64,000 bases of DNA from Microthyrium microscopicum (lineage: Eukaryota), in NCBI GenBank assembly GCA_010405405.1, contig MU004236.1, forward strand, positions 632,576 through 696,575, in the 5' to 3' direction. A program made the translations under genes and the position numbers. The notes under the pieces are model-generated. The model was given only the letters and a program-made list of their open reading frames with translations, searched no databases and was not told where the DNA came from. Within the stretch, counting starts at the first letter, position 1, and each line of letters begins with the position of its first letter. Below, one piece after another: positions 1 to 52,048 of the stretch.

Positions 1-1692
1 AATCTACGGCATCAACCTTCCAGGAAAGGATGTAGCAGCTGGAAGCATTGGAATCGACATGGAATACATTCCGTTCAGCGATGCAAAATTCATCATGCTC
101 GAGAAGGATCGTGCAACCAACGAGTGGGTAGCTGAGACTGCCATTGAACTTGTGGACTATAACTTTTCAATGAGCAAAACGGCACCTTTGGGAGAACTAC
201 TTCCAGAATTCGAGAAGAAAGCTCTCAGTATCAAATCCGCCATGTTAAAATCTAAAATGGTTGCCGACAACGAGGCCCTTTTGGTCACACATCAAATAGA
301 CCGAGTTTTGGAGCATTATCGTCAAATGCCCTCCGCCGAAGTTCCTGTGGGATTCTGTCATGGAGATTTAACATTGGCCAATATGCTGATCGATCCTGAG
401 AATCGAGAGTTGTGCGTCTTTGATTTCCTCGACTCCTTTGTGGTAAGTCCGTTGGTGCAACAAATAGTCGCAAACTAATCATTTTAGGAATCGCCGTTAC
501 AAGATATTGCAAAGCTTCTTCAAGATGTTCGTCATCAGTGGTTTCTGACACAAACAACCGTGCCTGAAGATCGTAGACCTCGCATGGTTTCACTGCTCTC
601 CATGTACTACGAAAAGGTCAAAGCCGCATATTGCGACTACGCTCTCTGGGATCTTGTTCCACTTTTTGAGTTTTTCTGTCTTGCACGCATATTGCCTTAT
701 TTCACCGAACTGAAAGAAAAGCATTGTATCCTGAACGGACTGGAGCGCATTTACAACGATCTCTTCGGCGACCTGGATTCGAAACGCGCCAACGAGCTAC
801 TTGAACCCCGTCATGTAGACTTGGAGCGGCCATACTCTCCTCATGATCGTAAAGTCACTGTAATTGTGCCAGCGCTAGGGCCTGCCATGGAAACACAATA
901 CGCATCTGGATCAGTCAAGCTTCTGACGCTTAATGTAGGTCTGCTGTCCATGAAAAGTTGTACATCTCTAACTTCATACAGAGCAACGGGCGCCCAATCA
1001 TTGTCAACAGCATAGCAAGCCTTGATACCACTAATGTATCACGAATCGTGGTTGTGGTATTGAACTCACTGGTAGAGACCAAATGTGGCTCAACAACCGG
1101 TTTTGAGAATCTCTTTGATGGCCTTGAAGCATGCAAAAGAAGTAAGATGGAGTTCATCTATTCTTCAACACAGTCATCCGATGCTTGCGAGTCCGTAACA
1201 TTGGCCATCCATGAGGCCAAGATCACCGGTCCAATCTTTATCAAAGATGCAGACAACGACTTCAAGACTGAGGTCATGGATGGCAACTACGTCAACTTTA
1301 CAAGTGTAGTACGCGAAGATCACCCAGCAAACCCATGGCAACAATCACTACGACCAGACCTCGTGGATGCTATGAAGAAGAGTTACGTTTCATTTGTGTA
1401 TGATAACGTCATCTCCAATGTTGCATACGGATCATTCATCTCCTCCAACTTTTGTTGTGGTGGCTGGAGTTTTCTCAGTGCCGGGCTCTTCTTGGACGCT
1501 GTCAACTCTTTGCGCGATCTGCTTGCTACGTCAGGCTTGGAGCATGGCAGTAAACGAGGTGAGTTGCGCGTTGTTGACGTTCTTTGGCAATTGGTATCTG
1601 AAGGCCATCTGTTCTTTGGAATCAAGGCCGAGGACTATCAGGATTGGGGATCGAATGCAGCGTGGCTTGCTTCCATCAATACTCGGCTTTAA
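1..1692 (+). CDS. Fusion protein, 5' end outside window: APH/choline-kinase-like phosphotransferase domain + nucleotidyltransferase (nucleotide-diphospho-sugar transferase fold)-like domain
   Basis: Exons <1-442, 488-934 and 982-1692 join in frame across GT-AG introns 443-487 and 935-981. Kinase motifs: CHGDLTLANML and DFLDSFV|ESPLQDIAKLLQD. NTase-like motifs: VIVPALG..VKLLTLN|SNGRPII, ESVTLAI..GPIFIKDADNDF, FCCGGWSF, YQDWGS. Confidence 0.8.
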
Positions 1693-3146: not shown

Positions 3147-5602
3147 ATGCTTCGTTTCGCTTCGCCTAAGCAGCTGCTTAGCAGCCTGAGTCCAGCATAT
3201 GCTGCGGCTCTGGCTCTCGTTTGTATACAGGTTGGTATTGGTATCATGTACAAAGCCGCCCAATCTGGGGGAAAGTGAGTAGACACACGACGAACATCGA
3301 TGAGCTCGAACTAACTACCATGGTAGATATCCCTTTTCTGCGACAGCCTCTGTCACCATATCCGAGACCCTCAAATGTTTATTATCAACGTTCCTATTCT
3401 ATCGAGAATGGAAGAATCGCGAAGGAGGAGTCAGATTACCGCAAACACCTATACCTTCACAACCAGTAACACTTAGGGATATGGAGGAAGGAAAGGAGAA
3501 GGATGACGATGACAGCGATACACTTTCGATATCTGACGATGACCCTCTCCACCATATGGAAAAGTCATATCAACACTCGCAAGGAACATATGCTGCTTTT
3601 TTCGAAGCTGTGAAGGAGGAGATTCCACAAGAAATCAAGTTTGGATTTGCTCATCTCGCGCTATTCTACGTCTTGATCAACAACATTGTCTTCGTCCTCT
3701 TCAGACTTGCCGATCCTGGTACAATTCAGCTTATTAAGTCAGGAACGACTCTGATCACAGCCGTGGTTATGATACTCTTTCTTAAGACCAAGATCGGGCG
3801 TGGACAATGGATAGCGATCGTTTTCCAAGTATGCGGTATTGTTGTTACCCAATATACACCATCAGGAAGCGCATTTCCACTCAGCACTTACCTCATACTC
3901 ATCTTTCAGACGACACTCAGCGCTGTGTCCAGTGTCTACAACCAAAAGCTTTGCAAAAGTAGCGATGGATCCCTTCATGTGATGAACATGACTCTTTACA
4001 GCTGCGGAGCAGTTATCAATTTCATTCTTCATATCTTGGTGCGAATCATGAATCGCGACGAACCGGGATTCTTCACTGGATGGGGACATATCGGAGCTCT
4101 GATGGTCATCGTTAGCAATGTCTTCATTGGCCTTGCCATGACCGCCGTATACAAGTGTAAGTCTACTGTAGTCTTGTTAATCAGGAATTCTTACTGACAT
4201 TCGCAGATGCCGATGCTCTCATCAAATGCTTCGCGACGGCCATGTCCACCGCTATTCTTCTTTACCTCTCCCCGTTACTTTTCAACGTCAGCTTCTCCTT
4301 CCTCGTCATTCCCGGTACATTGGTTGTGTTCATGGCCACATGGCTCTATATGGAATCCACACCCAGTAAACCAGCCAACCCGACTCCAGAAATGAAGCCC
4401 GCCTCTATGGAAGCCGAGACCAAGTCCTTCGTCAGCCGCATCCTCTACTCTCTCTCACCCTACGGCCCATTCCGCAAGGCTGGTCTTATGGGATCTACCA
4501 GCATCTGCTTCCTTATCATCGGAATGGTCACCTTCTATCGCACCCACTACATCATCACCGAACCCACAGTCGAAATCGACCTCCCCACCAACATCACCAT
4601 GCCCCCTAGCAACGCCATCTACGACTCGCCCATGAGAAACGTGGCCGGCTTCATCCGCATCAACCACGACCTACCCGAACGCGTCGAGCAACTAACAGCC
4701 GGCTACGAGCCCTTCTTCGACTCCCTACACTTCAGCATGCCAGCCGAAGGCCACGACCGCAACGAAACCAACCTCGAACGTGACTACTGGAACGATTCGT
4801 ACTGGCCCTACCCAGCCATGGTCGACTACCTGCAACTCGTGCTCAACAACGACGCAGAATACGGCCATCTAGAAGGCGTCCTCTTCTTCCACTTTGACGC
4901 GTGGATTGCGCCACTCAGCTTCAACGACATGGACTTTACCAAACTCTGGGTCCTCGACAAATCCACCGGTCCACCCTACATATGCCAGACAGAACTAAAA
5001 CGCATGGCCGACTGGATGTGGTTCGACGCAGGCTGGCAAGAGAAATCCCTCCAAGCAACCCGCATAATCGACCACATGTACTCCGGCTACACCTTCAACC
5101 CCGAAGAATTCTGCGCCGGGTAAGCCCCCTCCCCAACCACCACCTCCATCCCCTTACTGACAACCCATATAGGTGGTCCGACATGTACTACCTCCCGCGC
5201 CGCTTCTTCCAAGACTTCATCAACCTCGGCGGCGTAATGACCTCCGTGCAAGTATTCCACGAAATCGCCGTCCCCACCATCTGGAACATCATCGACAAGA
5301 CCTACTCGCTACACGCCTCGCAGTCCGTCCTACACCGTTGGGGCGACTGCTGGGGCGACTGCTGCGCTGGCTCACCGCTCGTGGAAGATATTGCCGAGCA
5401 CCGGTGCGGACACCATGTGGATTTTTTGAATTGGGAGATTACGAGTACGCACTTTGATAGATTGGAGAGGGATGCGCAGTTGATTGGGACGGAGATTCCG
5501 GTGAGGGAGGTGAGGCAGACGGCGAAGGGCCCGGTGTTTGTGGAGGCGGATAGGGTGGTGGTGAGTGATGCGGAGGTTGTGGCGAGGTTTATGATGATGT
5601 GA
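3147..5602 (+). CDS. SLC35A-like nucleotide-sugar transporter fused to a C-terminal luminal STELLO/DUF288-like putative glycosyltransferase domain
   Basis: Exons 3147-3274, 3327-4156, 4207-5119, 5173-5602 (introns with GTGAGT/GTAAGT/GTAAGC donors). Transporter motifs: KYPFSATASVTISETLK, ADPGTIQLIKS, QWIAI, SVYNQKL, GLAMTAVYKYADALIK. Then an extra TM helix and a domain with EGVLFFHFDAW..DFTKLW, GWSDMYYLPRRFFQDF and FHEIAVPTI. Confidence 0.82.
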
Positions 5603-5946: not shown

Positions 5947-7349
5947 TTACAATTGCTCGTTGACAAAGAGACCAGCCATTCCTTGACCAGTTCCAATGCA
6001 CATGCTAGTCAACAAGATACGCTTCTTCTGTCTCCGGGCCTCACTGAGACCAGTAACGATCTGTCGAGCTCCAGTAGCTCCTAGCGGATGACCAAGAGCA
6101 ATAGCACCACCACGGATGTTCATCTTCGAGTGGTCAATGTTAAGCTTGTTCAAGCAATATACAGCCATTGAGGCAAAGGCCTCGTTAAGCTCGATAATCT
6201 CCATATCATCAATGCTCAAGTTGTATTTTCCAAGCAGCTTTGGGATGGCAATGGATGGACCAATACCCATGATACGTGGCGCCAAACCAGCAATAGTAGC
6301 ACCAACAAACTTGGCCATAATCGGCTGTCCAAGGCTCTCAGCCATGGAACGCTTCATGAGCAGAATAGCAGCCGCACCATCAGTAACCTGCGATGAGTTT
6401 CCACCCGTCGAGCGGTTACCAAACTGTGGGAATGCTGGTCGGATCTTTGACAAACTCTCGAAAGTGGTACCATATCGAGGACCCTCATCCTTAGTCAACG
6501 TAACAGTCTTCTCTTCTCCAGTCTTAGGATCCTTGACAGTCGTGGTAATCGGCACAATCTCATCATCGAACCAGCCGCTCTTTTGCGCCACTTCAGCCCG
6601 GCGGTACGACTCGTTTGCATAACGATCTTGCATCTCACGGGTAATGTTGAAATCGTCGCTGACATTTTCGGAGGTCTGACCCATGGGCTGCATGCAATCA
6701 CACGCTTCCTGGTTCTTGAGGATATCTTCGTGGAATGGTCGTGATAGACGGTCTCCGCTTGTAGACATGCTCTCACAGCCAACGGCAAGACCGCAGTCGA
6801 TGCTGCCCATGGAGATCTGGTTGGCAATGTCCTGGACGGCCTTGAGACCAGAGGAGCAGAAGCGGTTGCAGGAGGAGGCGGCGGTGGTGTTGGGGAAGCC
6901 AGCGGCGAGAGCGGCGGCGCGGACGTAGTAGGCGGCTTTGCCCTCGTTGACCTGATGTTCATGTTAGCGTAGGTTTTTGGTGGTGGGGAAATGGGTAGGT
7001 CATACGTTTCCGAGGCAGATGTCTTCGACGAGTGCTGGGTCCATGTTCATGCGCTGGGTGACTTGTGTGAGGAGCTTGACGACAATTCCGTCAACACCGG
7101 TGTCCTTGAGACCACCCTTTCCACCCTTGGTGAGGGGAGTGCGGATGGCGAGGGTGATGACTACATCATCGGGGTGCTTTGCGGTACTGTATAAGCCATA
7201 AAATTAGCAATCGTACTTTGAATTACCATCTCGTCCACTTCAACTCCTTCTCATCCCCTCACTAGATCTGACAAGTAAACTTACATGGCATCAATTGGCT
7301 TGCCACCGGGCAACAGCTGCTGTGCGAAGCTCTTAAGACGTTCTGCCAT
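5947..7349 (-). CDS. POT1: Peroxisomal 3-ketoacyl-CoA thiolase
   Basis: Three exons (ATG at 7349). N-terminal PTS2 RLKSFAQQL; thiolase motifs RFCSSGL, ELNEAFA, GGAIALGHPLGATG, SMCIGTGQG. Confidence 0.95.
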
Positions 7350-7963: not shown

Positions 7964-10900
7964 TCAGCGTCTTCGCTTATAGTCGTACCCTCCTTTCTTC
8001 TTCTTTGCACCAGCTGATTTGGGCAGCTTAATAGGCTCACCAACCATCAGCTCCGTCATCAGACGGACCATGTAATCATCAACATGTGGTATTTCCCCAT
8101 TCTTGACAGGATCGTCAGAACCCGTCTCTTCAACGGCCTTGTCGACAGCAGCATTTGGATTTGCTGCCATGGCTTCCTGCTGATCGGCCTTGATATTTTC
8201 GTCAAAGTCAACATCATCACCAAGCACAATCTCTTGTTGAGCCACTTTGGCAGCTGCTGTGTCTTCTTTATCTTCGACCTTGTCCAGTACATTGCTCATT
8301 TCCGTAACATTATTTAGAAATTTGTCAAAGACGGCAGAGGCCTCGGCATCCTGATTCGTGGCTCGCTCATCGTTGATCATACCCTCGAGCGCATCACGGT
8401 ATGTGACCCGCTGGAACATGTCAGTTGTAAACTCACCACGCTGGATGATCACGTCGTCAAGTAGGCGCTTCTGGTTGGATTTGCGCAGGATGTTGGCTTC
8501 GATGGTGTACTCAGAGACAAAGCGGTAGATGTGCACATCGCGTGTTTGACCAATACGATGCACACGATCCTGACACTGCTTGTCCATGGCAGGGTTCCAG
8601 TCAAGATCGTAGAAGATGACAGTGTCGGCACCAGTAAGATTGATACCGAGGCCACCGGAGCGGGTGCTAAGAATAAATGTGAGAATACGAGTGTCGTTGT
8701 TGAATCGGTCAGTGAGGATTTGGCGCTGTTCAACTTTTGTCGCGCCATCAAGACGAAGATAGCGATGGCCGTGGATGTTGAGGAATTGTTCAAGAATATC
8801 GAGAACTTTGGTGAATTGAGTGAAGATGAGAGCTCGATGGCCTCCAGCTTGTAGCTGGCGTAGTAATTTGTCTAGAGCCTGAAGTTTTCCACAGTCATAT
8901 TGGAGTAGCCGTTTGTCGGGAAAAGCGATAGAAAGGCGGACTCGAGCTTCGTGGAATGGATCAATTCTTCGACGAAAAGATTCTGCAAGCTGTACAGTTT
9001 CCACACCAGCGGGTGTTAAGGTGAGAGGTCCGACATCTTCTGCAACAACTGTAGGAGTGATACATGCAAACTTGGTGATAAGCTCAGTAGCCTGGGAAGA
9101 AACTTGACCAAGAGTAGGCATTAGTCTTGAGATCGTAATGCACTTATCCAAGTAAGGGTAAGCATTGGTGAATTCTGGGTCTTTCTTATTCGGTCGACGA
9201 GGATCGAACCGGTTGGGCATGGTGACCATGTCAATGAGATCCGCTCCGTATATCGGTTTTGCCGCTAGAACTCGTCTCATGTGTGATGCTCTGTTGCGTA
9301 GATCTTGAATAATGTTCTTTTGTGCCTCGATAGCAACCCGCACAGAAACAGAGTCAGACCCATCTGATTGCTGCTTTTCCAAATCCTTTAGTCTCTCGGT
9401 CTCAGAGGCGGCGAGCCTTTCAAACTTTTGAGTAGCTTGAATTTGTGCCAGTCGCATGAGATGTCGCTTTCTTGTTTGCTCATGAGCTGCTGGTAAAAGC
9501 CCACAAAAATCTAAATCCAGTGACCTTGAAGAAAGGAGTCTGCGACGAACCATAAAGTCTTTGATCTCGTAGCTAGCAGCGACAGATTTTGGCATGGCCA
9601 AAGATGTAACAATCTGGCGAGTTTCGAAAAGATCAGGATGATTGCACACCTTTCGCAGTGACATGAGGCAATTCATGACAGACATGTAGTTGCCGGATGA
9701 TAGAGTTCGCTTGGTATCTGCTCGTCCCATGAATCCATCGTAGAGTTGACGCTGGCGTTTCGATAAGCGACAGTACACGACATGCTCATACTTTGACGGC
9801 ATTTGCTTCTCCACTTCAGATTTCAGTCGCCGCAATAGGTAGGGACGAAGAATCTCATGGAGCTTGCTAACACGGGCTTGAGCCTCAGGATCCAACTCTT
9901 GCCGGCCTTGGTCCAGAATCTGATCTGCTGGTCGTTTCATTGTATTCAAAAACTTTTCGAGATCAGCAAAACCACCACCATCTACGCCGGCAGGCATGAG
10001 GAAATAGAGCAACGACCAAAGTTCTTGCAGATTGTTTTGTAGTGGTGTGCCTGTGAGAAGAAGACGTGATTGAGTTTTGAAGGTGAGCAGAGTTTGCCAT
10101 CTCTGAGACTGGAAATTTTTGATGTTGTGAGCCTCGTCTAGAACGAGATAATGCCAATCTCTTCTTTTGAAAGCTTGTTGATCCTGCAAGACGAGATTAT
10201 AGGACGTGATAATCACATTCCATTTATCATCGTCTTTCCAGCCAACTCGCAAACGTCTTCGCTCATTGACATCTCCATAGTAGGTCAAGATTTTGAAAGC
10301 TGGGCACCACTTCTTGAATTCCATTTCCCAATTGAGCATGACCGAGGTAGGCACAACCACGAGATGAGGTCCCCAGACTTCATGAAAGGTAGCAAGATGA
10401 GCGAGGAGCGCAATAGTTTGGATGGTCTTCCCCAAACCCATCTCATCAGCCAAGATACCATTGCGGCCACCAGAGTATAATTTCGCAAGCCAGTCAACGC
10501 CATCATGCTGATACTCACGAAGAGAACCGCGAAGCAGCGGTGAGACCTCTGTACGAAACGACCGCGGGGTTCCTGGAATGATAGAAGTTGTAGGTGTTGA
10601 TATTGCAGCTTCCTGGTCAGGTCGTGGCGTGGATGCCACACTATGGTCCATGTCGCTGGCTTTGTCCGACGTTGGCAGGTTCTGTTCGATCATTTCCACA
10701 TCACTGTCTAGCTCCGATTCCGCGTCAACTTCAGCCTCATCCTCCAAGTCTTCTCCTGTGGTCTGGATGGATTGTGACCGTTTTGCTTCACGAGCTTCTT
10801 TTGCAATAGTTTGAATCTCATCTTTGCCATAAAGAAAACCCAAAGTGTTGGAAATGCCCTCATCTTCCTCCTCCTCTTCATCTTCGGATTCTTGAGAGTC

Positions 10901-12916
10901 GCTTCCCCCACTGCCACTATCATCGTCAGTCATATCGGTGGACTCGTCCTCCGAATTCTCCAGCAATTGATCTGGAACTTCATCCACTTTGAGATTCTTA
11001 TAAGCAGAAAAATCATCGTCGACTTCCGACTCAACACTCGAGTGTGGTGACTTTAGGTCGGATTTAGAATAATCTGCTTTGTCCTCATCTTCTGCATCCG
11101 AGTTATTGGCGTTGCATTCTTCGTCTGCACTTGAAGAGTCGGGTAGCTTCGAATCGAGTACATGGGCATATTTTGCCATGAGTTGCTCCTGGGTAAGCTC
11201 TTGATCATCATCAGCTTGTTCTTGGCTGTCTTCTTCCTCATCACTGCTCTCGGAAAGATTCTCGTCATCCTCAGTGGCCCCTCCAGCAGCATCAGACTCT
11301 TCATCCTCGAATTCGACCTCGGAATTGAAAGCAACCGAATGGCGGCGTGAGCTCATCATTTCGCTAGTAGCTTCGGCTGATGATTCCCGAAATTGATTGT
11401 CCAGTATTTTGGTAGATTGTTCCAGCATTTCATCGAGGTGACGATTGCCTAACGCTTCTTGGTCTCTTTCCCAGTTGGCCAGTTTAATGGTGTCCACTTC
11501 TTGTCGTACCATTAACCACTTGTCTTTCACATCTTTTACAATTTGCTTGTATCGTTTGATTTGATAGTCAAATTCCTCCTGGTAAACCTGGTCCAAGGAT
11601 TTGGCTTCTCGTAGAAATGCCCATCTGTCTTCAGTCGCAATTGCTGTTTGAACGTGTTTGGCAACTTTGGAGGCTTCCTGCATATGTCTATGGACTTCTC
11701 GACTGCGCAAAGTGGAAAAATAAACCGCGTGCTGCGCGACAAATGCCCAATGAGCGTATTTTGTAACAGGTTCAGGAAAAGCTTTGAACGCAAATCTAGT
11801 GCATCGGCCATCACTTAGAACCCCTCCTTCTTCAGCGGCTTCAGTTATGCGCAATCGAGTTTTTGCTTCATTAAGCACTTGGTCGGTATTAGAAGGATAA
11901 GCTTCACCTTCGAGGGGGTCGTCTTTTGACGCCCACTCTTCAAAAGACTCGAAAGTCTTGGGTGGTACAAGGTGCTTCGGATGTTGGCGAAAGGTAGGAG
12001 CTTCGCGTGTTCTGAGATGCTGTTTCGCATATTTGGTAGGTTCTTCGTATGTAGACACAGAGGCGCGACCACGCCGAGTTTTCGTAGAACGAGAAGTCGT
12101 TTTATACTCTTCAGACTCTAGCGGCGCGTCGCCAGAGGCTCGACGACCTCTTCGCGTTGACTTGGTCTCTGAAGGAGCAGGCGCATCATGATGACGAGAA
12201 GACTTTGGTCTGCCAACCCGTCCCTTTGATGCGGTTGACGCTGACCCATGACCGTTAAGTCCATTTAACTTGATCTTGATCGGCTCATCAGCCAAAGATT
12301 TGCGCGGCCGTCCTGGGCCTTTCTTTGGAGGAGGAGGAGATTCTTCTTGGATAAACCTTGTGCTTTTCCGCCTGCCGCCTACAGTTATAGATGTTGGTCC
12401 CGGTATCAATGCACTCTTCCAAGGTGGTGATTTTGGGCGCTCAAGATTACGAGTTGGTGACTCCTCAACCTTGACAGTAGGAGTTACGGCAGGATTTACA
12501 GCAGCCCTCGATGACTTTCTGCGACCATCCACGATAACAGCCGAAGGTCCATCAGCAGCAATCGCGCGCCAAGGAGGAGACGGCGGCTTTTGCTTCTTGG
12601 CTGAATTGAAAACAGATTTATCAGCGGAGGGAGAAGGAGTATGTGCAGCGAGCTTTTTCGAGGGCGGCGAGGGATCTCGGTCGGGGGAGGAAAAGTGGTC
12701 GAATTTTCGCTTCAAGGAGGCGCCATTAGTAGCCATCTCGACGTGTGCATTTTCATCTGAACGATGGCCATTAGAGCCATTTGTATGGGAAGGTTTGACG
12801 GAATCGACGGGATGGGAAGACGTTGCGGAATTGTCTATATCGTGTTCGTTGTGATTGTTAGTTGAGGAGTAATGTACATCCGAGTGATTTGCGAGGGCAG
12901 CGGATGGCTTGGGCAT
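7964..12916 (-). CDS. SWR1: SWR1 Snf2-family chromatin-remodelling ATPase (H2A.Z deposition)
   Basis: Single long ORF with first ATG at 12916. AT-hook (GPGRPRK), HSA-like region, acidic tract, GILADEMGLGKT, LDEAHNIKNF, LRKVCNHPDLF, split ATPase insert, FPDKRLLQYDCGKLQ, QCQDRVHRIGQTRDVHIYR. Confidence 0.97.
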   Translation of the reverse strand: MPKPSAALANHSDVHYSSTNNHNEHDIDNSATSSHPVDSVKPSHTNGSNGHRSDENAHVEMATNGASLKRKFDHFSSPDRDPSPPSKKLAAHTPSPSADKSVFNSAKKQKPPSPPWRAIAADGPSAVIVDGRRKSSRAAVNPAVTPTVKVEESPTRNLERPKSPPWKSALIPGPTSITVGGRRKSTRFIQEESPPPPKKGPGRPRKSLADEPIKIKLNGLNGHGSASTASKGRVGRPKSSRHHDAPAPSETKSTRRGRRASGDAPLESEEYKTTSRSTKTRRGRASVSTYEEPTKYAKQHLRTREAPTFRQHPKHLVPPKTFESFEEWASKDDPLEGEAYPSNTDQVLNEAKTRLRITEAAEEGGVLSDGRCTRFAFKAFPEPVTKYAHWAFVAQHAVYFSTLRSREVHRHMQEASKVAKHVQTAIATEDRWAFLREAKSLDQVYQEEFDYQIKRYKQIVKDVKDKWLMVRQEVDTIKLANWERDQEALGNRHLDEMLEQSTKILDNQFRESSAEATSEMMSSRRHSVAFNSEVEFEDEESDAAGGATEDDENLSESSDEEEDSQEQADDDQELTQEQLMAKYAHVLDSKLPDSSSADEECNANNSDAEDEDKADYSKSDLKSPHSSVESEVDDDFSAYKNLKVDEVPDQLLENSEDESTDMTDDDSGSGGSDSQESEDEEEEEDEGISNTLGFLYGKDEIQTIAKEAREAKRSQSIQTTGEDLEDEAEVDAESELDSDVEMIEQNLPTSDKASDMDHSVASTPRPDQEAAISTPTTSIIPGTPRSFRTEVSPLLRGSLREYQHDGVDWLAKLYSGGRNGILADEMGLGKTIQTIALLAHLATFHEVWGPHLVVVPTSVMLNWEMEFKKWCPAFKILTYYGDVNERRRLRVGWKDDDKWNVIITSYNLVLQDQQAFKRRDWHYLVLDEAHNIKNFQSQRWQTLLTFKTQSRLLLTGTPLQNNLQELWSLLYFLMPAGVDGGGFADLEKFLNTMKRPADQILDQGRQELDPEAQARVSKLHEILRPYLLRRLKSEVEKQMPSKYEHVVYCRLSKRQRQLYDGFMGRADTKRTLSSGNYMSVMNCLMSLRKVCNHPDLFETRQIVTSLAMPKSVAASYEIKDFMVRRRLLSSRSLDLDFCGLLPAAHEQTRKRHLMRLAQIQATQKFERLAASETERLKDLEKQQSDGSDSVSVRVAIEAQKNIIQDLRNRASHMRRVLAAKPIYGADLIDMVTMPNRFDPRRPNKKDPEFTNAYPYLDKCITISRLMPTLGQVSSQATELITKFACITPTVVAEDVGPLTLTPAGVETVQLAESFRRRIDPFHEARVRLSIAFPDKRLLQYDCGKLQALDKLLRQLQAGGHRALIFTQFTKVLDILEQFLNIHGHRYLRLDGATKVEQRQILTDRFNNDTRILTFILSTRSGGLGINLTGADTVIFYDLDWNPAMDKQCQDRVHRIGQTRDVHIYRFVSEYTIEANILRKSNQKRLLDDVIIQRGEFTTDMFQRVTYRDALEGMINDERATNQDAEASAVFDKFLNNVTEMSNVLDKVEDKEDTAAAKVAQQEIVLGDDVDFDENIKADQQEAMAANPNAAVDKAVEETGSDDPVKNGEIPHVDDYMVRLMTELMVGEPIKLPKSAGAKKKKGGYDYKRRR

Positions 12917-13750
12917 TGCCAGCAGCTGCACGAGTGGTTCAAGGCAAATCCGGTCGAACCACCCTGCGCGACACGAACTGATGATAAAGTATTGAGAATT
13001 TCAGTTGAGAAGAAAGCGAAGAGCAAGCTAGAAACGGTGATGTGGTCAGATTTGAGGAGACGTGTAAAAGAGAAGAGTTGTTGGAGATTGAAGGTGGAAT
13101 CAGATGAATTATTAGGAGATGGAAAAAAGCCGATTCCGCGAGCTGATGGCGCGTCTGGAGGGTCAGTTGTAATGTTGCCTTAGTCTGGACTGTACCTTCT
13201 CAACGTGTGCCTGTGTGCCTGATTCGAGCTTGTCTATCCGTTTCAGTTTTGCGTGCTCAGATCCAGGAGCTGAGATGTCTACTATGACACGGGGACGATC
13301 TAAAGTGCAAATAGCCTGAGGAAGGAGCACCCAGACCCGCTTCTGTATGAGGAAGGAGCACACGGATTACTGCAGGCAATAAGGCAAGAGCGACCTATTG
13401 AACGTCACTGCTCCGTCGGGCCAATAATTTACTAGTCCCTCACTGTTACCTACCACAACTGATAGTGCCTCTCTCACCACTACAACTGTGGGCAATTCGA
13501 GCTTCAAGCAACTCTACCTGCAAATCTACAAACTTCACTTTTATTTATGACCGACAATACCACCCCCTGCTACTTACCCTCTGCTTCCATTTGTCCAACC
13601 GTCACCAAATATCTCTCCAAAACGCCGTGTCATTGCTGGCGGACCTTTACAGTCCCACCTCCTAGGAAATGCGACGTGCCGCAATCCTCAAAATCCACCA
13701 TTTCTTCATGACCGACCCATGAACTCTACTCTTTACAACTCTCCAGCGCC

Positions 13751-16700
13751 ATGGACCCTTCCAAGAAGCGCGCCTTGAGGGAAAACAACTTGAAAGTTTG
13801 GGCGGGGGCTACTGGTGCGCAACAAATATTCCTCGGAGCCTCTTCACCCACCTGCTAACCATATCAGACATCTTTCCTGTCAAACAAAACCAAGACTCCT
13901 CCCTAAAGAAAAACACTGCCTTTATAAAACGTCTGCGCACCGCTATTTCCGCCCCAAATGTTAGCCTATTTCTTACTGAAGTCGCGGGCCTTAGTTTGTA
14001 CAAGTACATGGCCGAGATCATATCGTCGCTTTATGAAGGACTACAGAAACTGAAGACTCCAGCCGATATTGCTGCAAGTGTACAAGTCGTCAGCGCCTTA
14101 CATCAACGGTTCGGACCTGCCGAGTTTACGGGATATCTTGGATGGTATATTGGGCGCGGTTTGAGTACTCCAGACAAGTCGCAACTGAAGGCTCTAGCTC
14201 CAGATGTAAAGGAACGTGAAGAGAAGGATCGGCTTGCTCGTCAACGAGGACTACTGAGAGTGGCTACTGAGCTCTGGCTGGCTGGTGTCTTACGAAGCTT
14301 GGAAGATGTTGTCCGCCCCGAATCGGAAACCAAAGACAAAGACGGTGGCAAGGCTTCAGAACCAACTGCAAAAGCGAAAGCTGCAGCAAATGCCGCAAAA
14401 TCACAGACCGGTGAAAGCGACCCATTCCCACTAGAAGTTCTCAAGGATCTGCTAGGCCATGATCGAGACCATGTGAACCTGCCTCTGGTCGTGATTTTTG
14501 TGAAATCATTTGCCTGGGATGTCCTTGGAATAGTGCCCCGTGGCTCTGACCGTAGACCAGGCGCAGACGATCACGATGATGTCAAAATTGAGGGTTCATC
14601 TGAGCCGGATGCCTCCACCAAAGAACCTCCGCTTGCTAGTCCGGAACTTGCTATCCGATTCAAAAACGTCTTGGCCCGTTACTTTGAAGATGTCAAGGCT
14701 CACATCGTGCGCGATCAAAAAACTCTGACCGCTCAAAATCGCCGAAATGCCGAAGCCTATGTTCGTAGTGGCGAAATTTTTGATGATCGTCAAGCAAACT
14801 TTGAGAAGCAGACTAAAGCTCAAGACAAGCTTATATCGAATGCTCAAGTCCTGGCAGATATGCTGGGAGAAGATATGCCTGACCTCCGCGACAAAGATGA
14901 AGGTCCTACCGTAGGAGAAAACTCCATTGGTCTCGTAAAGGCAGGAGATTATCTCAAAGGACAAAACGACGGGCCTGGAATCTGGGAGGATGAAGAGGAA
15001 CGCCGATTTTACGAGAACCTAATTGACGTCAAAGACCGAGTGCCAACTATCTTGCTGGAGGATGGGAAAAAGAAGAAGCAGGAGAATGAGGATCCAGCCG
15101 GCAAGAAGCAGGACTCAAAGTCTCCTGTCGAGGAATCCACCAGTGCTCCTACTTCAACTGATGTTGAAGATCTGAATGTTGCAATTGCGAACAAATCTGT
15201 TGGTGCACAGGTTGATGGACTGCTAGCCCGACTTCCAGATCTCCACGGAAAGGATTCTGTTGATCAATTCGCCATCGACTTTTGCTTTGTCAATTCCAAA
15301 GCCTCGAGAAATCGACTTGTGAAGGCACTTCTTGATGTTCCAAAAGGCCGAGTCGACCTGCTACCACTTTACTCTCGTATTACTGCGATTCTGAGCAAAT
15401 ATATGCCTGATATTAGTTCCGCTATGATCACCCACCTTGATGACGAATTCCGCAGTCTACAGCGCCGCAAATCCAAAGACTTTCTTGGAGCTGTTCGATT
15501 ACAGAATATTCGCTACTTTGCAGAATTGACAAAATTCGGCATTGTACCCGAACATGTTATCTTCCATTGCTTCAAGGTCTGCCTCGATGATTTGACAAGA
15601 ATGAATATCGAAATACTGGGTCAGCTCATGGAAAACTGTGGGCGTTTTCTTCTTCGCAGTCAAGACACATCTCCACGCATGACCTCTTTCTTGGAAACTT
15701 TGCAACGGAAGAAGGGTGCGCAACACCTCGATCCGCGAGAAAAGTTGATCATAGAAAATGCCATCTATCATGTTAATCCTCCCGAGCGGCCGGCTATTGA
15801 GCAAAAGGAACGAACTCCGATGGAGCTTTTCATCCAAAAGATTATCTATGACGATCTCACAAAGCGCAACGTGGACAAAGTCACCAAGCAAATTCGAAAA
15901 CTTCATTGGGAAGAACAAGAAGTAAGGAAATTATCTTTTAATCCAACCGCACTTTGCTAACGTTGTAGGTTGTCTCAATACTAGAGAAAGTCTTCACCCG
16001 TCCATGGAAGGTTAGGTACAATAATATTCACCTACTCGCCGTGATATTGGGATCGATCCATCGCTATCATCCTCAGTTCGCCATCACCTGTGTCGACGAC
16101 CTCTTGGAGACCATATTTGAAGGTCTGGAGAAAAATGATGTCAAATTCAACCAGCGTCGTATTGCTCAAGGCAAGTACCTTGGGGAACTTTACGCATACC
16201 GCATGATTGATTCATCTGTGGTCTTTGACACTTTATTCAAGATCATTGCATTTGGTCACGAAAACGGTATTCCGAAAACCGATTTTGAGAATCCGTGGGA
16301 CCTGCCAACCGACTTCTTCCGTATAAGACTTGTCTGTACCCTTCTTGAAACTTGCGCCAGCTTTTTTGCCCAAGGTCCGGCTAAGAAGAAGCTGGATTTT
16401 TTTGTTTCCTTCTTCCAGTACTACATAAACACCAAGGACAAGCTCTCTCCGGACATCGAGTTCGCTATCCAGGATGCCTTTGCAGTCATTTCTCCCGACT
16501 TGAAGTTGATCGATAGCTTCGAGGAGGCCGGCAAGGAGTTTTCGGATGCCTGTAAGGAAAATTACCAGACAACCGAAAACGGCAAGGTAACTGCCGAAGT
16601 TGAAGATTTGGATGACGAATCGGTTTCGGACGAGGTAGACGATGACGACGATGCGGTCGCTGATGATGCTGAAAAGTCTTCGGCTGACGAGCTCGAAGTC

Positions 16701-17766
16701 CCCGATCAAGCCGACGATTCTGACGACTCTAACTCTAGTGAAGAAGAGGACGAACAGATTATCGTCACTCGACAGGAAGAAGAGCGAGATCCAGAGGTGG
16801 ATGCCGATTTTGATCGCGAACTTGCCAAGCTCATGGCAGATAGTATGGATTCGAGAAAACTTGAGCGGAAGACTTTGTTTGATGTTCCTCTTCCTATCCG
16901 TCGTAAGGAGCGCGAGGCTGCTGGGGAGGAGCCCCAGTTCACACCTGGTCCATTCCCTGATGCTCCTCACATGAAGTTCAGTCTTTTAAGTAAGAGAGGC
17001 AACAAACAACTGGTATGGCGAATTCGCACATCACAAATTTCTATTTTCCATACGTTGGATCTACGCTAACTCTGTTGTAGACACGGGATATTGACCTGCC
17101 GGCTGACTCTACCTTTGCCGTTGCCATGCGTAGCCAACAGCAGGCGCAAAAGCTAGAGCAAAAGCGCATCAAGGACATCGTGCTGAATCTCGACCTTCGT
17201 GATGACTCGACTGAAGCCACAGATGGTGAAGACCCTTTTTCTTCCCCCCTCAAGCGTAACCCAAATCACTCCAAGCTTTTGTCAAGATCAAATTACGGAG
17301 CAGACACTGTGAACCGCACTCCGACGATTCACAGTTCGTCCGTTCAAGGTCGTCATGTTCAGCATTCTGTGGTTTCTTCTTCTACTTCAAATCATGTTGC
17401 ACCAAAAGCCCGCGTTGTGTCCAACAACGAGAATATTTCTACTCACACCTCATCTCAAGGCACATCTCTCGAGAAGAATCCGCCCAATCCCTATCTACAG
17501 CCTCGCGTCGATAAGGCGGGCAAAGGCCGTGCCAATGCGCGCGGCCGACAGCTGCAAGTCAGCGATCTTGACTGGTATGGTGAAACTGCGAACCCTTCAG
17601 CTTCCTCGACCGACATCCATACGAACGCTGGTCGAGGCCATGGTCGTGGACGCGGGCGCGGGCGTGATGCTGCGCGCGGCCGCTGACGACTGGGCTGTTT
17701 TCTTTTGTCGAGTACCAATATACTATGGCGACTAATGACAATGTTTTGTTGCGCGACAGGACGTGA
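13751..17766 (+). CDS. UPF2: Nonsense-mediated mRNA decay factor Upf2/Nmd2 (three MIF4G domains)
   Basis: ATG at 13751; introns at about 13815-13867, 15921-15969 and 17013-17080, probably also 17226-17459 and 17575-17759. Motifs DSSLKKNTAFIKRLR, GIWEDEEERRFYE, FNQRRIAQGKYLGELY, DFFRIRLVCTLLETC, acidic tract, C-terminal LQVSDLDW. Confidence 0.95.
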
Positions 17767-48418: not shown

Positions 48419-50195
48419 TCAAAGTCCCTTGGGCGCCTTAACAAGCTCCCAATTCCGCCCACCACCATCCCGATTCGCCTTTTGCAAATCCGTCAACATC
48501 ACCATCAATCCCCTCTTCCCACAATATCCATCTCCCCTTGCGACCTTTTCCACTTTTTGCCAATGGCCTGCCATTTGCTCTTCTGGCATTGGCCATGATA
48601 ATCCGTTTTCAGCGTCCATGGAGGCATTGCGGTTATGTTCGCCATTTAGCGCACTGTTTTCATAAGTCCATGTTTGTACTGTTACGGTTTCGCGGGGGTT
48701 TTGTGTACGGCGTGGGTTATGTTCCCAGCCGGCGGGGAACCACTCCGCAAACCATTGGAGAGGCGTATATGCACGTTCGAACCGCTGGAACCGCGGCTGC
48801 CAGCGCCAGGTGCTAAGATCGTAGGCGACGCGGATATATGGATTGACAAACATTTTCGGAGAGTCCGGGGTGCGGGCGAGGAGATCAGCGTTCAAAAGGC
48901 AGCATTCGGAGGCGTCCCAGAAAATTTCTGGTTCATGGCGGAAACGTAGTGGCTGCTCTATCTGCGTTGTATTTGGCATTGTGTTTTGCGTAAGAATGGA
49001 TGGTGGGTGTGCGTCAACGATGGCGCGCTGGAGGAATGGTGTAGCTTCGTAGGCTGCCATTCCACTCCAGCAGCTACGGACGGGGACAGTGTCAGATTGG
49101 GCGAGGACGGCGTCGCGAGATGTTGCGCTGCCGCGGGCGGTGAAGAAGGGGTAGAGAGAGGTGCTGATTTCGTAGCCGTCTGTGTCGCGGATGACGAAAC
49201 TATCGTATAGCGTGCCGCCGCGTAGAAAGTCGAGAGCGCAGGCGCCTTGGTATTCGGCGATGCCGGTGGTGGGATTCTGGTTGGTGGAGAAGAGGAGGTT
49301 GAGAGCGTCTTCGGGGTTGAAGTATATGTCGTTTATGAAGAGGACGCGGTCGAAGCGTGTGCTGGTGTAGTTGACTGAAGGTGTATGACCGGATTCTAGG
49401 ACTGGTGGATTATCTAGGGGAACTAGAAGTCGGTTTCTGACTTCGGCTAGGTAGGTGAGTCGTTGGACTCGTGGTTCGCCTTTTGGTATTATGACGGTTG
49501 GGAAGTCTGATAGAGGAAGATGGTCGCCAGTCACGATTGAATGCTCGCCTGGTACATGTTAGTATCCGGTCATATATATCAATTTGCAACTTACAGTTCA
49601 ATTGTTGCTGGAACCACTGTAGAGCTTGTACAGTCTCTGGACCACTGTCGTTTTCATATATGCTCACAAAAACATTATCTGGTCCCAACATATCGATAAG
49701 TTCCAGTACTGATGCACCCCATGGTCCCCGAATCAGCTCATGTTGTATTATATTAGATGCAATGAAAACTTTCTCTCCTCGTGGATTGCCCCTTCCTGGT
49801 ATATTCGAGCTTGTAGCCAAAGCAGCCAGCTCTTGATAGCGTTGCGGAAAATTGGAGTATGATGGTCGTAGAACGCCATTGCCAAGCACCCAAAGCAGGC
49901 ATATTATGAATCCTAGTACTACAAGATTGAATATGCAAGAAAATATCCTCAGCTTTTTGCTCTTCGTCTTGCGTCGTTTCCAAATTCCAAGGGGCGAATA
50001 TGTAAGATTCGAAAGAAATCGTCCGAACCGAGACTTTGGAGATCTATGTGGCTTTTCGTAGAAGTAGGATTCCGGGACATCGTCGTGATAGTCGCTGAAG
50101 GATTCGGAGGAAGAGATTCGTGAGTCTTCAGAAGATATACGAGCAAGTAGGTGGGTATTGGCCTCTTCCATGCCGAGACTTCTGTGTGTGTCCAT
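48419..50195 (-). CDS. CAP59/CMT1-family (GT69) alpha-1,3-mannosyltransferase
   Basis: Type II TM; KVFIASNI, VFVSIYENDS, YLAEVRNRLLVPL, FDRVLFINDIYF, ACALDF, YDSFVIRD, VRSCWSG, SECCLLNAD; intron 49549-49594. Confidence 0.92.
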
Positions 50196-52048
50196 GTTGT
50201 TGAATGTTGAAGAGGAATGTGTAAAGAATAGAGGATGACAGGCGCAATTGGCACAGGGCCAAGGCCAGTTATGGTAAGGACGAAAGAAGAGAAACAAAGG
50301 GATCAGGTAAACGTTCTCAACAATCGAGGTGTTTGTTCATGGTCAATGGAACGGCAGTAGTATGGAACAATACAAGCATCAGAGAGGGCACAATTATGCT
50401 CTGACCATTGGATGAGCAGGGCAGGAAGTCTAAAGCGGGAAGCGGATCGGGGTGAGGATTGTGAAGATTAATTGAGAATCGAAGTAATGGGATAAAAATG
50501 ATTTAGGCGAAGGAATAGAATAAGAGTAGAAGCTAGAAGCGTCAAGAAAGAAGAAGCTGAAAATGGAGATCAGTGGTGATGGTAGGACAAAGAGCCGTTT
50601 TCATGGATTTGAAGGAGGCGGCGCATGTGCATTATGGGCTTGTGGGCTGAGACTCTCAGACTGAATACCAGTTGGGAGGCACTGAAAGCGGCACCCTAAT
50701 AGGCTAATAGTAGTAGACGAATCGAAGGAACAAAAGCTCTGACGCAACAAGTCTTCCAACCATCCAGCTTCCAAGGATTTTCTAGAAGCGCTTTAGCTGT
50801 ACCATCGGCACTTTGTTTGCGCGGCACATGCGTGCTAGACTATGTCGAAACGTGTTGGTATTTTCTCCTTGCCCCAACTCACTGGTGGTTGCCCATTGTT
50901 TGATTCGGTATCGTATATCATTCGTATATCATCTTGGTAGGAAAGACTGACTCTTGTGGGATTCAAGATGGGATTTGACCGAGGTCAATATACGAGGATC
51001 TAGAATCCCACAGTACAGAGAGTGAAGGATGTTGGGGACGTGTGGTTAAACAAAATGAGTGCTAAGCTTTTACGGATGCAAGCCTCAAAGCGAATGGCGC
51101 AGGGGTAATTTCTCCTCCTCCTAATTTACTCGTTGTACAAAACCGCCTGGAGAATCAGCTCCCTCAGCCCCAGCCTAATTTTACCTTTATAGATCGCAGT
51201 TACAACTGCAAACTTGACCGTTTTCTTGACTCGAGAAGAACATACTCCGCATTACAGGATTCTGATCGCGAGTACCGAATATTGCCGCGAATGCTGACGT
51301 GGTTGTCCATGATCATGACGTTGAATCTTTGCCCTTTCCAGATCTGGGAGCCGTTAAATCTGCAGAATCTTGCGTCGATCCAATCATCTGCTGGCTATCT
51401 GTAAAAGCCTTGCTTTTTAGAGCCTCAGTGCCAGTGGCGCAAGGTTTGCTGGGCATTTGACACATCAATTGCTACATGGCATTTCATTTGTCGATACTTG
51501 ATAAAGTTTATATCCAGCTTTTCAATAAGGAGGCAGAAGACACTTTCTTCATCTCGTTGATCATGATCTGTTACCCAGAAAACGCACACCGAGGAGCAAG
51601 ACGTCTCCCATTTTGATCCACAAAGAAAATCTACTTTAATTCCCAGCGCATTCGATGGGAAACGGAGTGATGATGATCTGAGTGCGAATCTAAGCACCTG
51701 GTAATACAGTGCAGCGAATGGCATTATTACTACACGTTATGCAGAACCAGTCTGCCATTTATTTTGATTGGGCCCGTTGGCATCTACTGTAGGTAATTGA
51801 TACAATCTCGATGAGAACCACCTGGGCAACTTCCATCTCAAAGATGAGACAACATCCCCAGCCCATAACCATACATACCCACCCCCGCCAACTTAACCCC
51901 GCGCCCGCCTTACAAGCCAATATCAAACAGTCAATCAATACGAGAATCCCACACGATCCAACAGGATCAACTAACCTTGAAATTCCACAGCCTACCGTGA
52001 CACACTCAAACACTCCAGCAGCCTACACGAAGTAATCCATCCGCAATA

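Follow-up and report, generated by a model that had tools for sequence, protein, structure and literature searches.

A spliced fungal gene of Microthyrium microscopicum couples a kinase to a nucleotidyltransferase-like domain lacking the canonical nucleotide-binding loop

We analysed a stretch of 64,000 nucleotides from Microthyrium microscopicum (assembly GCA_010405405.1, contig MU004236.1, positions 632,576 to 696,575 of the forward strand; hereafter the window), in which positions 1-1692 hold the 3′ two thirds of a + strand gene encoding a protein of 733 residues. This gene, here called B, is genuine, fungal and spliced. It fuses a small-molecule kinase with a nucleotidyltransferase-like domain, and the latter, having lost its nucleotide-binding loop, is probably inactive as judged from its sequence. 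Two further genes recur throughout and are named for brevity: A, an intact paralogue of B, and C, its downstream neighbour. We tentatively propose, giving the idea slightly less than an even chance of being right, that B is the kinase and pseudo-transferase subunit of a sugar-activation pathway in which it would act with A and C.

Gene structure and the kinase half of B

Within the window, B consists of three exons separated by two GT..AG introns; the edge of the window cuts the gene, leaving its first 201 codons upstream of position 1. Its features are as follows:

2-442, + strand: exon 1, truncated at its 5′ end, encoding residues 202-348 of 733 and the kinase core (Pfam APH; tblastn of the database protein P0153)
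359-367, + strand: HGD catalytic loop in exon 1 (H-G-D-x-x-x-x-N at 359-382)
422-436, + strand: DFLDS metal-binding motif in exon 1 (D-F-x-D at 422-433)
443-487, + strand: intron 1, 45 nucleotides, GTAAGT..TAG, with a branch-site-like ACTAAT near its 3′ end and an in-frame TAA (direct reading)
488-934, + strand: exon 2, in which the C-terminal part of the kinase gives way, after the linker, to the transferase-like domain with its first strand and loop
from 488, + strand: ESPLQDIAK, the opening of exon 2
863-901, + strand: IVPALGPAMETQY loop in exon 2 (the degenerate loop region is given as 866-934)
935-981, + strand: intron 2, 47 nucleotides, GTAGGT..CAG, with a branch-site-like TCTAAC near its 3′ end (direct reading)
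982-1692, + strand: exon 3 with stop, encoding the body of the nucleotidyltransferase fold (open 982-1689, stop codon TAA at 1690-1692)
1243-1263, + strand: KDADNDF in exon 3 (K-D-x-D-N at 1243-1257)
1636-1653, + strand: YQDWGS in exon 3 (D-W-G at 1642-1650)

The spliced product is exactly the C-terminal 532 residues of P0153 (733 residues), whose residues 202-733 map to positions 2-1689 when aligned onto the window by tblastn. Moreover, both exon junctions are gap-free in intronless bacterial homologues, which read DFLDSFIE(T/S)PLQDI across the first and KPKWLLT.PNG across the second, and the second is also gap-free against paralogous homologues. Since the junction motifs are contiguous in these intronless proteins, the splice is validated independently of any fungal gene model. 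A preliminary description of this DNA, made from the letters alone, had thus read the gene correctly: every motif it quoted lies at the position it gave, its two canonical introns join the halves in frame, and the gene model and domain homologies agree that one intron-containing fungal gene fuses a kinase to a domain of the nucleotidyltransferase fold.

By homology and motif content, the N-terminal half of B is a kinase of the APH/eukaryotic-like kinase (ELK) fold with intact catalytic motifs. Pfam places APH (PF01636) on exon 1 with 31.9 bits against a cut-off of 23.2, and the full-length orthologue P0001 reaches 42.3 bits with the same model. The H-G-D..N loop and DFLDS are intact in B and the same residues are invariant in 18 bacterial kinase homologues; with a hidden Markov model (HMM) built from bacterial kinases alone, B is recovered at E 6.9e-39, well beyond chance. 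The general APH, choline-kinase and homoserine-kinase models match just marginally, and the matches to Bud32, TP53RK, RIO and APH proteins are weak, which marks the kinase as a divergent branch of the ELK fold. Compared with the bacterial kinase modules, B carries an extra N-terminal region of about 150 residues. The predicted activity, which the glycan-locus context of the relatives supports only indirectly, is that the kinase may phosphorylate a small-molecule hydroxyl in an ATP-dependent manner.

The presence of Bud32, TP53RK and RIO among the weak profile matches in the PDB would also suit a quite different account, in which B is a decaying or mis-annotated relic, or a kinase acting on proteins or lipids unrelated to glycans. 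However, the frames of B are intact, its introns are canonical, its orthologues retain 38-68% identity across three fungal classes, and its linkage to transferase-HAD genes and polysaccharide loci is consistent; we find this account scarcely credible.

The transferase-like half and its intact paralogue

Sequence profiles and structural models agree in placing the second domain of B within the nucleotidyltransferase fold. Exons 2 and 3 have no Pfam or NCBIfam match, and a phmmer search of exon 3 as a single sequence against the PDB returned nothing meaningful, entry 4EVW remaining unmatched. When exon 3 alone was searched against 1.84 billion representatives, 204 relatives were found at E<=1e-3 and 51 at E<=1e-10, the best reaching E 1e-27 and beyond. 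A profile of 30 family members matches 4EVW at E 6.4e-9 over about 205 columns, including its A-G-x-S-S-R-F loop, and the C-terminal extension that many members carry matches the Pnkp1 HAD phosphatase domain (profile, 6.4e-7). The Atlas model of residues 488-733 gives template-modelling (TM) scores of 0.75-0.82 to clusters with PF00483 (up to 97% of members) or PF12804. Relatives of B have sub-threshold PF12804 and IspD matches, and the family HMM scores the canonical NTP_transferase open reading frames (ORFs) of the Bacteroidales loci described below at 43-94 bits.

To locate the loss, 432 family domains were aligned to the family HMM and the motif columns were read. The consensus of the intact family is A-G-x-S-S-R-F, K-P-K-W, K-D-x-D-N, K-S, E-K, G-G-Y and D-W-G, where the E-K motif, lying ahead of the G-G-Y strand, contains what we take to be the sugar-phosphate-binding Lys by analogy with RmlA. 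The fungal B clade entered this census with 13 of its 15 listed members, at a domain cut of 100 bits. Neither of the two loop Ser survives in any of the 13, the loop Arg is present in two and the first Lys of K-P-K-W in one; the E of E-K is absent throughout and its K is found in three. Retained are K-D-x-D-N and K-S (12-13/13 each), G-G and D-W-G (13/13 each) and, as remnants of the loop, its Gly (10 of 11 non-gap sequences) and the second Lys (11 of 11). The nucleoside triphosphate (NTP)-binding loop, described as degenerate in the preliminary account, is indeed so: the canonical Ser-Ser-Arg loop, together with the E-K motif, is lost across the 13 fungal orthologues.

This domain is nevertheless not decaying, since it is about as similar to its orthologues as the kinase is (identities of 68 vs 68%, 62 vs 63% and 53 vs 53%, falling to 38 vs 51% for the most distant) and since the replacement loop is itself conserved, with a pattern of its own among the 13 orthologues. 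The two domains are joined by a linker of low conservation. Given the loss of the Arg/Lys loop, transferase activity is unlikely but not disproved.

Paralogue A is a protein of about 550-700 residues composed of an N-terminal domain of no assigned family, an intact transferase and a HAD phosphatase. Across 11 named fungal A proteins, all loop and catalytic motifs are present in 11/11, except for the first Lys (10/11, with one Arg) and the Ser of K-S (7/11). B, by contrast, ends 11 residues past D-W-G and lacks a HAD phosphatase domain C-terminal to its transferase domain, the HAD being carried by A instead. A is found in the same species as B orthologues (Microthyrium, Trichodelitschia, Patellaria, Stipitochalara, Sphaceloma, Dothideomycetidae sp. 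11243 and Irineochytrium), and also in Hyaloscypha and three Parmeliaceae lichens. The two genes appear linked: 15 of the 27 fungal B entries lie on a contig of exactly the same size as an A entry (9,713, 11,694 and 12,846 bp among them), and in Dothideomycetidae sp. 11243 A and B have consecutive locus tags, 056460 and 056470.

The N-terminal domain of A was considered as a complementary pseudokinase, a candidate we rejected: when the bacterial kinase profile was compared with 24 A-type proteins by hhalign, the probability was 2.7%. Of note, a single A-type protein with intact transferase and HAD, P0014, has an N-terminus resembling a kinase C-lobe at residues 5-126, with the catalytic Asp replaced (hhalign probability 27%, E 6.6e-4). 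This remnant hints that the A-type paralogues might descend from a kinase-bearing triple fusion.

Gene C follows B on the same strand and starts 1.45 kb downstream of it:

3147-5602, + strand: gene C (P0266, 766 residues, at least four exons), a PF04142 nucleotide-sugar transporter with a C-terminal luminal domain; P0266 maps to 3147-5599

Pfam detects PF04142 in C at 5.2e-19. The luminal domain, of about 300 residues, has an Atlas feature score of 0.96 and a TM score of 0.65 to STELLO clusters, and as modelled it resembles Golgi glycosyltransferases of the STELLO type. Homologues with the same fusion are known from Trichodelitschia, Letharia, Elasticomyces, Xylogone, Scytalidium, Exophiala and Fusarium. 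All three genes of Trichodelitschia, A, B and C, are on contigs of identical size (219,148 bp). C is likely a functional partner of B.

Both A and C had been missed by the preliminary description, which was incomplete to that extent. It had left open whether the second domain changed its specificity or became inactive; the degenerate loop on which this rested stands, whereas reading B as a bifunctional enzyme is probably wrong given the intact linked paralogue and gene C. B would now be understood as a kinase with a non-catalytic domain, working within a multi-protein pathway.

Bacterial relatives, evolutionary origin and genomic surroundings

A profile of the ~539-residue relatives, run against a single genome for each species, yielded 79 bacterial loci. 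Most belong to Bacteroidales (Bacteroides, Prevotella/Segatella, Alistipes, Muribaculaceae), and the remainder to Akkermansia, Bacillota, Pseudomonadota, Chitinophagaceae, Nitrospirota, Campylobacterota and one candidate-phylum bacterium; by record titles and lineages, bacterial relatives are present in at least seven phyla. The kinase and the transferase-like domain are encoded by separate adjacent genes in 68 loci and by one reading frame in 10, with one locus cut by a contig end, and the order is kinase, then transferase in 78 of the 79. Stop-to-stop frames of the commonest split cases overlap or all but touch; in Segatella copri, the overlap between called genes is 4 nucleotides. The loci also contain GT2 and GT4 glycosyltransferases, a flippase, a polymerase, acyl- and pyruvyl-transferases and an initiating sugar transferase. 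In line with the preliminary description, then, the bacterial relatives are typically separate small genes in polysaccharide loci. Its fusion of kinase and transferase in the fungal gene also holds, but not as a fungal invention, since fused forms exist in Bacteroidales and eukaryote-like triple fusions are found as well.

These loci fall into two types. In nine loci, all from outside Bacteroidales, the gene after the kinase encodes an intact transferase-HAD protein of about 360 residues. Here 9/9 retain the Gly, Arg and Phe of the loop together with the second Lys, K-D-x-D, K-S, E-K and D-W-G, and a few other positions vary, such as the first Lys (5/9, replaced by Arg in three). The kinase-linked domain of the 70 Bacteroidales-type loci is loop-less (Arg 0/69, second Lys 0/69, Gly 3/69) and keeps K-D-x-D (69/69) and the E (69/69) and K (65/69) of E-K. 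Of these 70 loci, 65 contain a separate, canonical NTP_transferase-like ORF in the vicinity, compared with none of the nine that encode an intact transferase-HAD protein; Pfam and NCBIfam scans of two Bacteroidales loci identify this ORF as a PF00483 transferase, and a beta-phosphoglucomutase-like HAD follows it. That a degenerate, kinase-linked domain is accompanied by an extra intact transferase nearby, in 65 of 70 bacterial loci and 15 of 27 fungal entries, is the main support for reading B as a pseudo-subunit.

The Bacteroidales loci (L001-L068, L072 and L076) can also be described as sharing a conserved capsule sub-module made up of a canonical NTP_transferase, a beta-phosphoglucomutase-like HAD, in some loci an acyltransferase, the kinase and the loop-less domain, as in these examples:

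L001, 7690-11635: capsule sub-module
L042, 8705-11568: capsule sub-module

The same arrangements bear on whether the transferase-like domain needs a partner at all, for it could act in cis only, as a ligand sensor (e.g., for end-product feedback) or a substrate presenter, with no contact with A. Its retention of substrate-side motifs after loss of the nucleotide loop would fit such a role, as would the fact that fungi and 10 of the 79 bacterial loci have it covalently fused to the kinase; the overlapping or nearly abutting frames of the split loci likewise suggest that the two products act together. Yet this leaves unexplained the extra intact transferase beside the degenerate form, and transferases of this fold are commonly oligomeric. 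We regard a cis-only role as distinctly improbable.

A specific product has some support from one bacterial species, Helicobacter bilis, in which a GmhA-like gene lies beside the module:

L071, 7548-8129: GmhA-like SIS_2 gene beside the kinase and transferase-HAD gene
L070, 3030-3620: GmhA-like SIS_2 gene beside the kinase and transferase-HAD gene

Such an arrangement recalls a route to a nucleoside diphosphate (NDP)-heptose, in which the kinase would act on C1 and the phosphatase on C7 before nucleotidyl transfer, making the system a non-homologous analogue of HldE. The combination of a kinase, a HAD-type phosphatase and a nucleotidyltransferase would fit the four-step heptose pathway as set out in the excerpted text of PMC11461863. 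But a phmmer search over all locus ORFs found SIS_2 homologues in just these 2 of the 79 loci, both from Helicobacter bilis, and there is none among the first genes of the window; moreover, the known heptose nucleotidyltransferases differ in motif and fold, according to the same excerpts (PMC11461863). A heptose route is thus, in our view, very unlikely.

To place B among its relatives, we built a quick IQ-TREE phylogeny of the transferase domain (68 rows), rooted, weakly, on three canonical Bacteroidales transferases. Twelve fungal B sequences form one clade with a Shimodaira-Hasegawa-like approximate likelihood ratio test (SH-aLRT) support of 98, and its sister is a pair of short proteins, P0011 and P0012 (98). 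Together these group (89) with fungal paralogue A and with eukaryote-like kinase-transferase-HAD triple fusions, of which P0022, P0034, P0039 and P0173 are listed; the 17 sampled bacterial loci and 13 transferase-HAD proteins form a separate group (92). The kinase tree (41 rows, several long branches flagged) recovers the same split at 91, and across both domain trees the fungal B clade has SH-aLRT support of 98-99. Judging from these trees, both halves of B appear to share one history, and the ancestor was likely a kinase-transferase-HAD fusion that was duplicated, one copy keeping an intact transferase and HAD and the other keeping the kinase and losing the loop. An approximately unbiased (AU) test of a group defined after the tree was seen, a single clade of all degenerate domains, fungal and Bacteroidales, rejects that clade (delta log-likelihood 55.9, p 0.0011), which implies that the loop was lost twice, independently.

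As for the individual fusions, P0173 (938 residues) combines a kinase with a transferase-like domain whose loop is near-canonical and, as its third domain, a canonical sugar-1-phosphate nucleotidyltransferase, which is effectively the Bacteroidales set in one chain.

The preliminary description had inferred an old horizontal acquisition. Neither domain tree nests the fungal copies in bacteria, the fungal clade lying outside the sampled bacterial clades in both. The fungal distribution is patchy, comprising eight named species plus Microthyrium, from Dothideomycetes, Leotiomycetes, Lecanoromycetes and one chytrid. Since the family is abundant in bacteria and rare in eukaryotes, horizontal transfer is the economical explanation; a transfer from bacteria is plausible on the distribution, and the trees give neither its direction nor a donor. 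No atypical base composition was found, the GC fraction being 0.456 in the first 4 kb vs 0.456-0.505 across the window.

The chytrid, Irineochytrium annulatum, has copies of both paralogues (P0155, P0157 and P0032, on contigs of 10-21 kb) that group inside ascomycete sequences; these could reflect assembly contamination or fungus-to-fungus transfer. In addition, many structural neighbours carry the label Uroviricota in the Atlas. A phage origin was considered and set aside: tblastn of the transferase-HAD protein P0026 against 50,697 phage records found 2 records.

Part of this evidence can be read in favour of a truly bifunctional B, a kinase and an active nucleotidyltransferase whose altered loop brought a new specificity, acquired from bacteria and supplied with introns later. 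Its two domains are similarly conserved, the metal- and substrate-side motifs are kept, and the replaced loop is conserved and keeps one Lys and the Gly; an acquisition would also fit relatives that are overwhelmingly prokaryotic and sit in polysaccharide loci, and the patchiness of the fungal distribution. However, the loop Arg and Ser, the first Lys and E-K are gone in B, whereas they are intact in paralogue A and the bacterial transferase-HAD proteins, with the first Lys varying. Moreover, an intact paralogous transferase is linked to B, Bacteroidales underwent the same loss on their own and have a separate canonical transferase in 65 of 70 loci, and the fungal clade is not nested in the sampled bacteria. 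On balance, we consider bifunctionality unlikely.

The window also encodes an NmrA-like protein, a cutinase and Pal1. Ordinary fungal genes surround B, none of those below obviously tied to it:

5947-6963, - strand: thiolase
7964-13000, - strand: SNF2-family helicase
13723-17069, + strand: Upf2
48419-50336, - strand: CAP59-type mannosyltransferase, split by an intron

Between B and C, at 2409-2561, there is an inverted repeat with 51-nucleotide arms that are 92% complementary and a 51-nucleotide spacer. The core of the arm occurs at just these two sites in the window, with 0 expected by chance, and the repeat might form a hairpin or be left over from a miniature transposon.

A possible sugar-activation pathway and its known counterparts

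In the pathway that we tentatively favour, B would be one subunit of a cytosolic system for sugar activation. Its kinase half would phosphorylate a small hydroxyl substrate, most likely a sugar. Its transferase-like half, which descends from a sugar-phosphate nucleotidyltransferase, would be non-catalytic but still bind the sugar phosphate or the product, and would either tether the kinase to the catalytic enzyme or have a regulatory effect on it. That enzyme would be A, so that kinase, HAD phosphatase and transferase together would yield a sugar activated with NDP or cytidine monophosphate (CMP). Finally, C would carry the activated sugar into the Golgi and attach it to a glycan, as a surface sugar. 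The proposal starts from points that are established, namely the gene structure, domain homologies, motif loss, A-B linkage, B-C adjacency and the polysaccharide-locus context in bacteria; from these we infer the class of substrate, the lack of transferase activity, the contact between A and B and the role of each pathway step.

Several observations weigh against this proposal. The transferase-like domain retains the loop Gly and a Lys (in V/I-K-L-L), 2 of the 13 orthologues have a loop Arg and the new loop is conserved, so that a changed chemistry of this domain is possible. The kinase profile matches the PDB weakly, at E of about 1e-3, with Bud32, TP53RK and RIO protein kinases appearing alongside APH and the resemblance to Bud32/RIO as weak as that to APH. 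The linkage of A and B was deduced indirectly, from equal contig sizes and locus tags, and A is absent from the 64-kb window, where the sole tblastn match is one of 29% identity to exon 3. Pfam is silent on the luminal domain of C, and its STELLO-like label comes from one Atlas comparison; C need not be dedicated to the pathway of B either, since it is present in Fusarium, Exophiala and Letharia, where no B was seen. Lastly, the only solved relative, 4EVW, is a structural-genomics entry, and no paper on the family, its fungal proteins or the function of 4EVW was found in the open-access literature searched.

A broader and rather doubtful extension, somewhat less so than bifunctionality, would make the fusion or coupling of a dead transferase to a kinase a recurrent design that arose separately in gut Bacteroidales and leotiomycete fungi, serving to assemble or regulate a kinase-phosphatase-transferase complex that activates a sugar. 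The fungal cluster, made up of this pathway and the transporter-glycosyltransferase fusion, compact, patchily inherited and possibly bacterium-derived, would then add a novel cell-surface residue in ascomycetes that dwell on rocks, on leaves or in lichens.

If the proposed pathway is correct, it would define an enzyme family, probably tied to a sugar nucleotide, with hundreds of members in bacteria, in sequences labelled viral in the Atlas and in a few eukaryotes. It would also offer a natural experiment in pseudoenzyme evolution, the same nucleotide-binding loop having been lost twice, each time beside an intact transferase. The three-gene set, covering activation, Golgi import and transfer, could explain an unrecognised modification of the cell wall or of glycoproteins in Dothideomycetes, Leotiomycetes and lichen-forming fungi, and a conserved four-gene capsule sub-module would be flagged in gut Bacteroides, Prevotella and Alistipes.

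Two-step modules in which a kinase of the APH/ELK fold precedes a nucleotidyltransferase are known, among them LicA/LicC for choline, AmgK/MurU for N-acetylmuramic acid (MurNAc) and the NahK-type anomeric kinases. Like these modules, the present system couples an APH-fold kinase genetically to a Rossmann-like nucleotidyltransferase, often in surface-polysaccharide loci, and the NCBIfam MurU model weakly matches the canonical Bacteroidales transferase; unlike them, the domain attached to the kinase is without the nucleotide loop and the module includes a HAD phosphatase. With the bacterial kinase and transferase-HAD pairs and the Bacteroidales set, B shares homology of both domains, their order and a parallel arrangement of degenerate plus intact transferase. 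It differs from these bacterial modules in its introns, its N-terminal extension, its own clade and its independent loop loss, and from the Bacteroidales domain in having also lost E-K, which is kept there in 65 of 69. The closest solved relative is 4EVW (255 residues, 'nucleoside-diphosphate-sugar pyrophosphorylase'), which carries the A-G-x-S-S-R-F loop and whose sole mention in the open-access literature searched, as far as its excerpted text extends, is in a crystallisation-server paper.

The retention of an impaired paralogue together with an active one is also familiar from the large and small subunits of plant ADP-glucose pyrophosphorylase. Similarly, GMPPA is a catalytically impaired sugar-1-phosphate nucleotidyltransferase paralogue kept beside the active GMPPB, as described in the excerpted text of PMC11228364. 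As in these two systems, an impaired transferase paralogue (B) would stand alongside an active one (A); unlike GMPPA/GMPPB, the impaired copy is here fused to a kinase and belongs to another sequence family.

The union of kinase and nucleotidyltransferase in a single chain likewise has precedents, such as FKP, a bifunctional sugar kinase and NDP-sugar pyrophosphorylase. HldE, too, holds a sugar kinase and a nucleotidyltransferase in one polypeptide, according to the excerpts of PMC11461863. B resembles HldE and FKP in placing the kinase and nucleotidyltransferase domains of one pathway in a single chain, but the folds are non-homologous, Pfam assigning the kinase of B to APH and not to GHMP or ribokinase, and its transferase is probably inactive. 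B is an uncharacterised variant of the known kinase-plus-nucleotidyltransferase theme, set apart by a convergently evolved pseudo-transferase domain and by its likely place in a three-gene glycan cluster.

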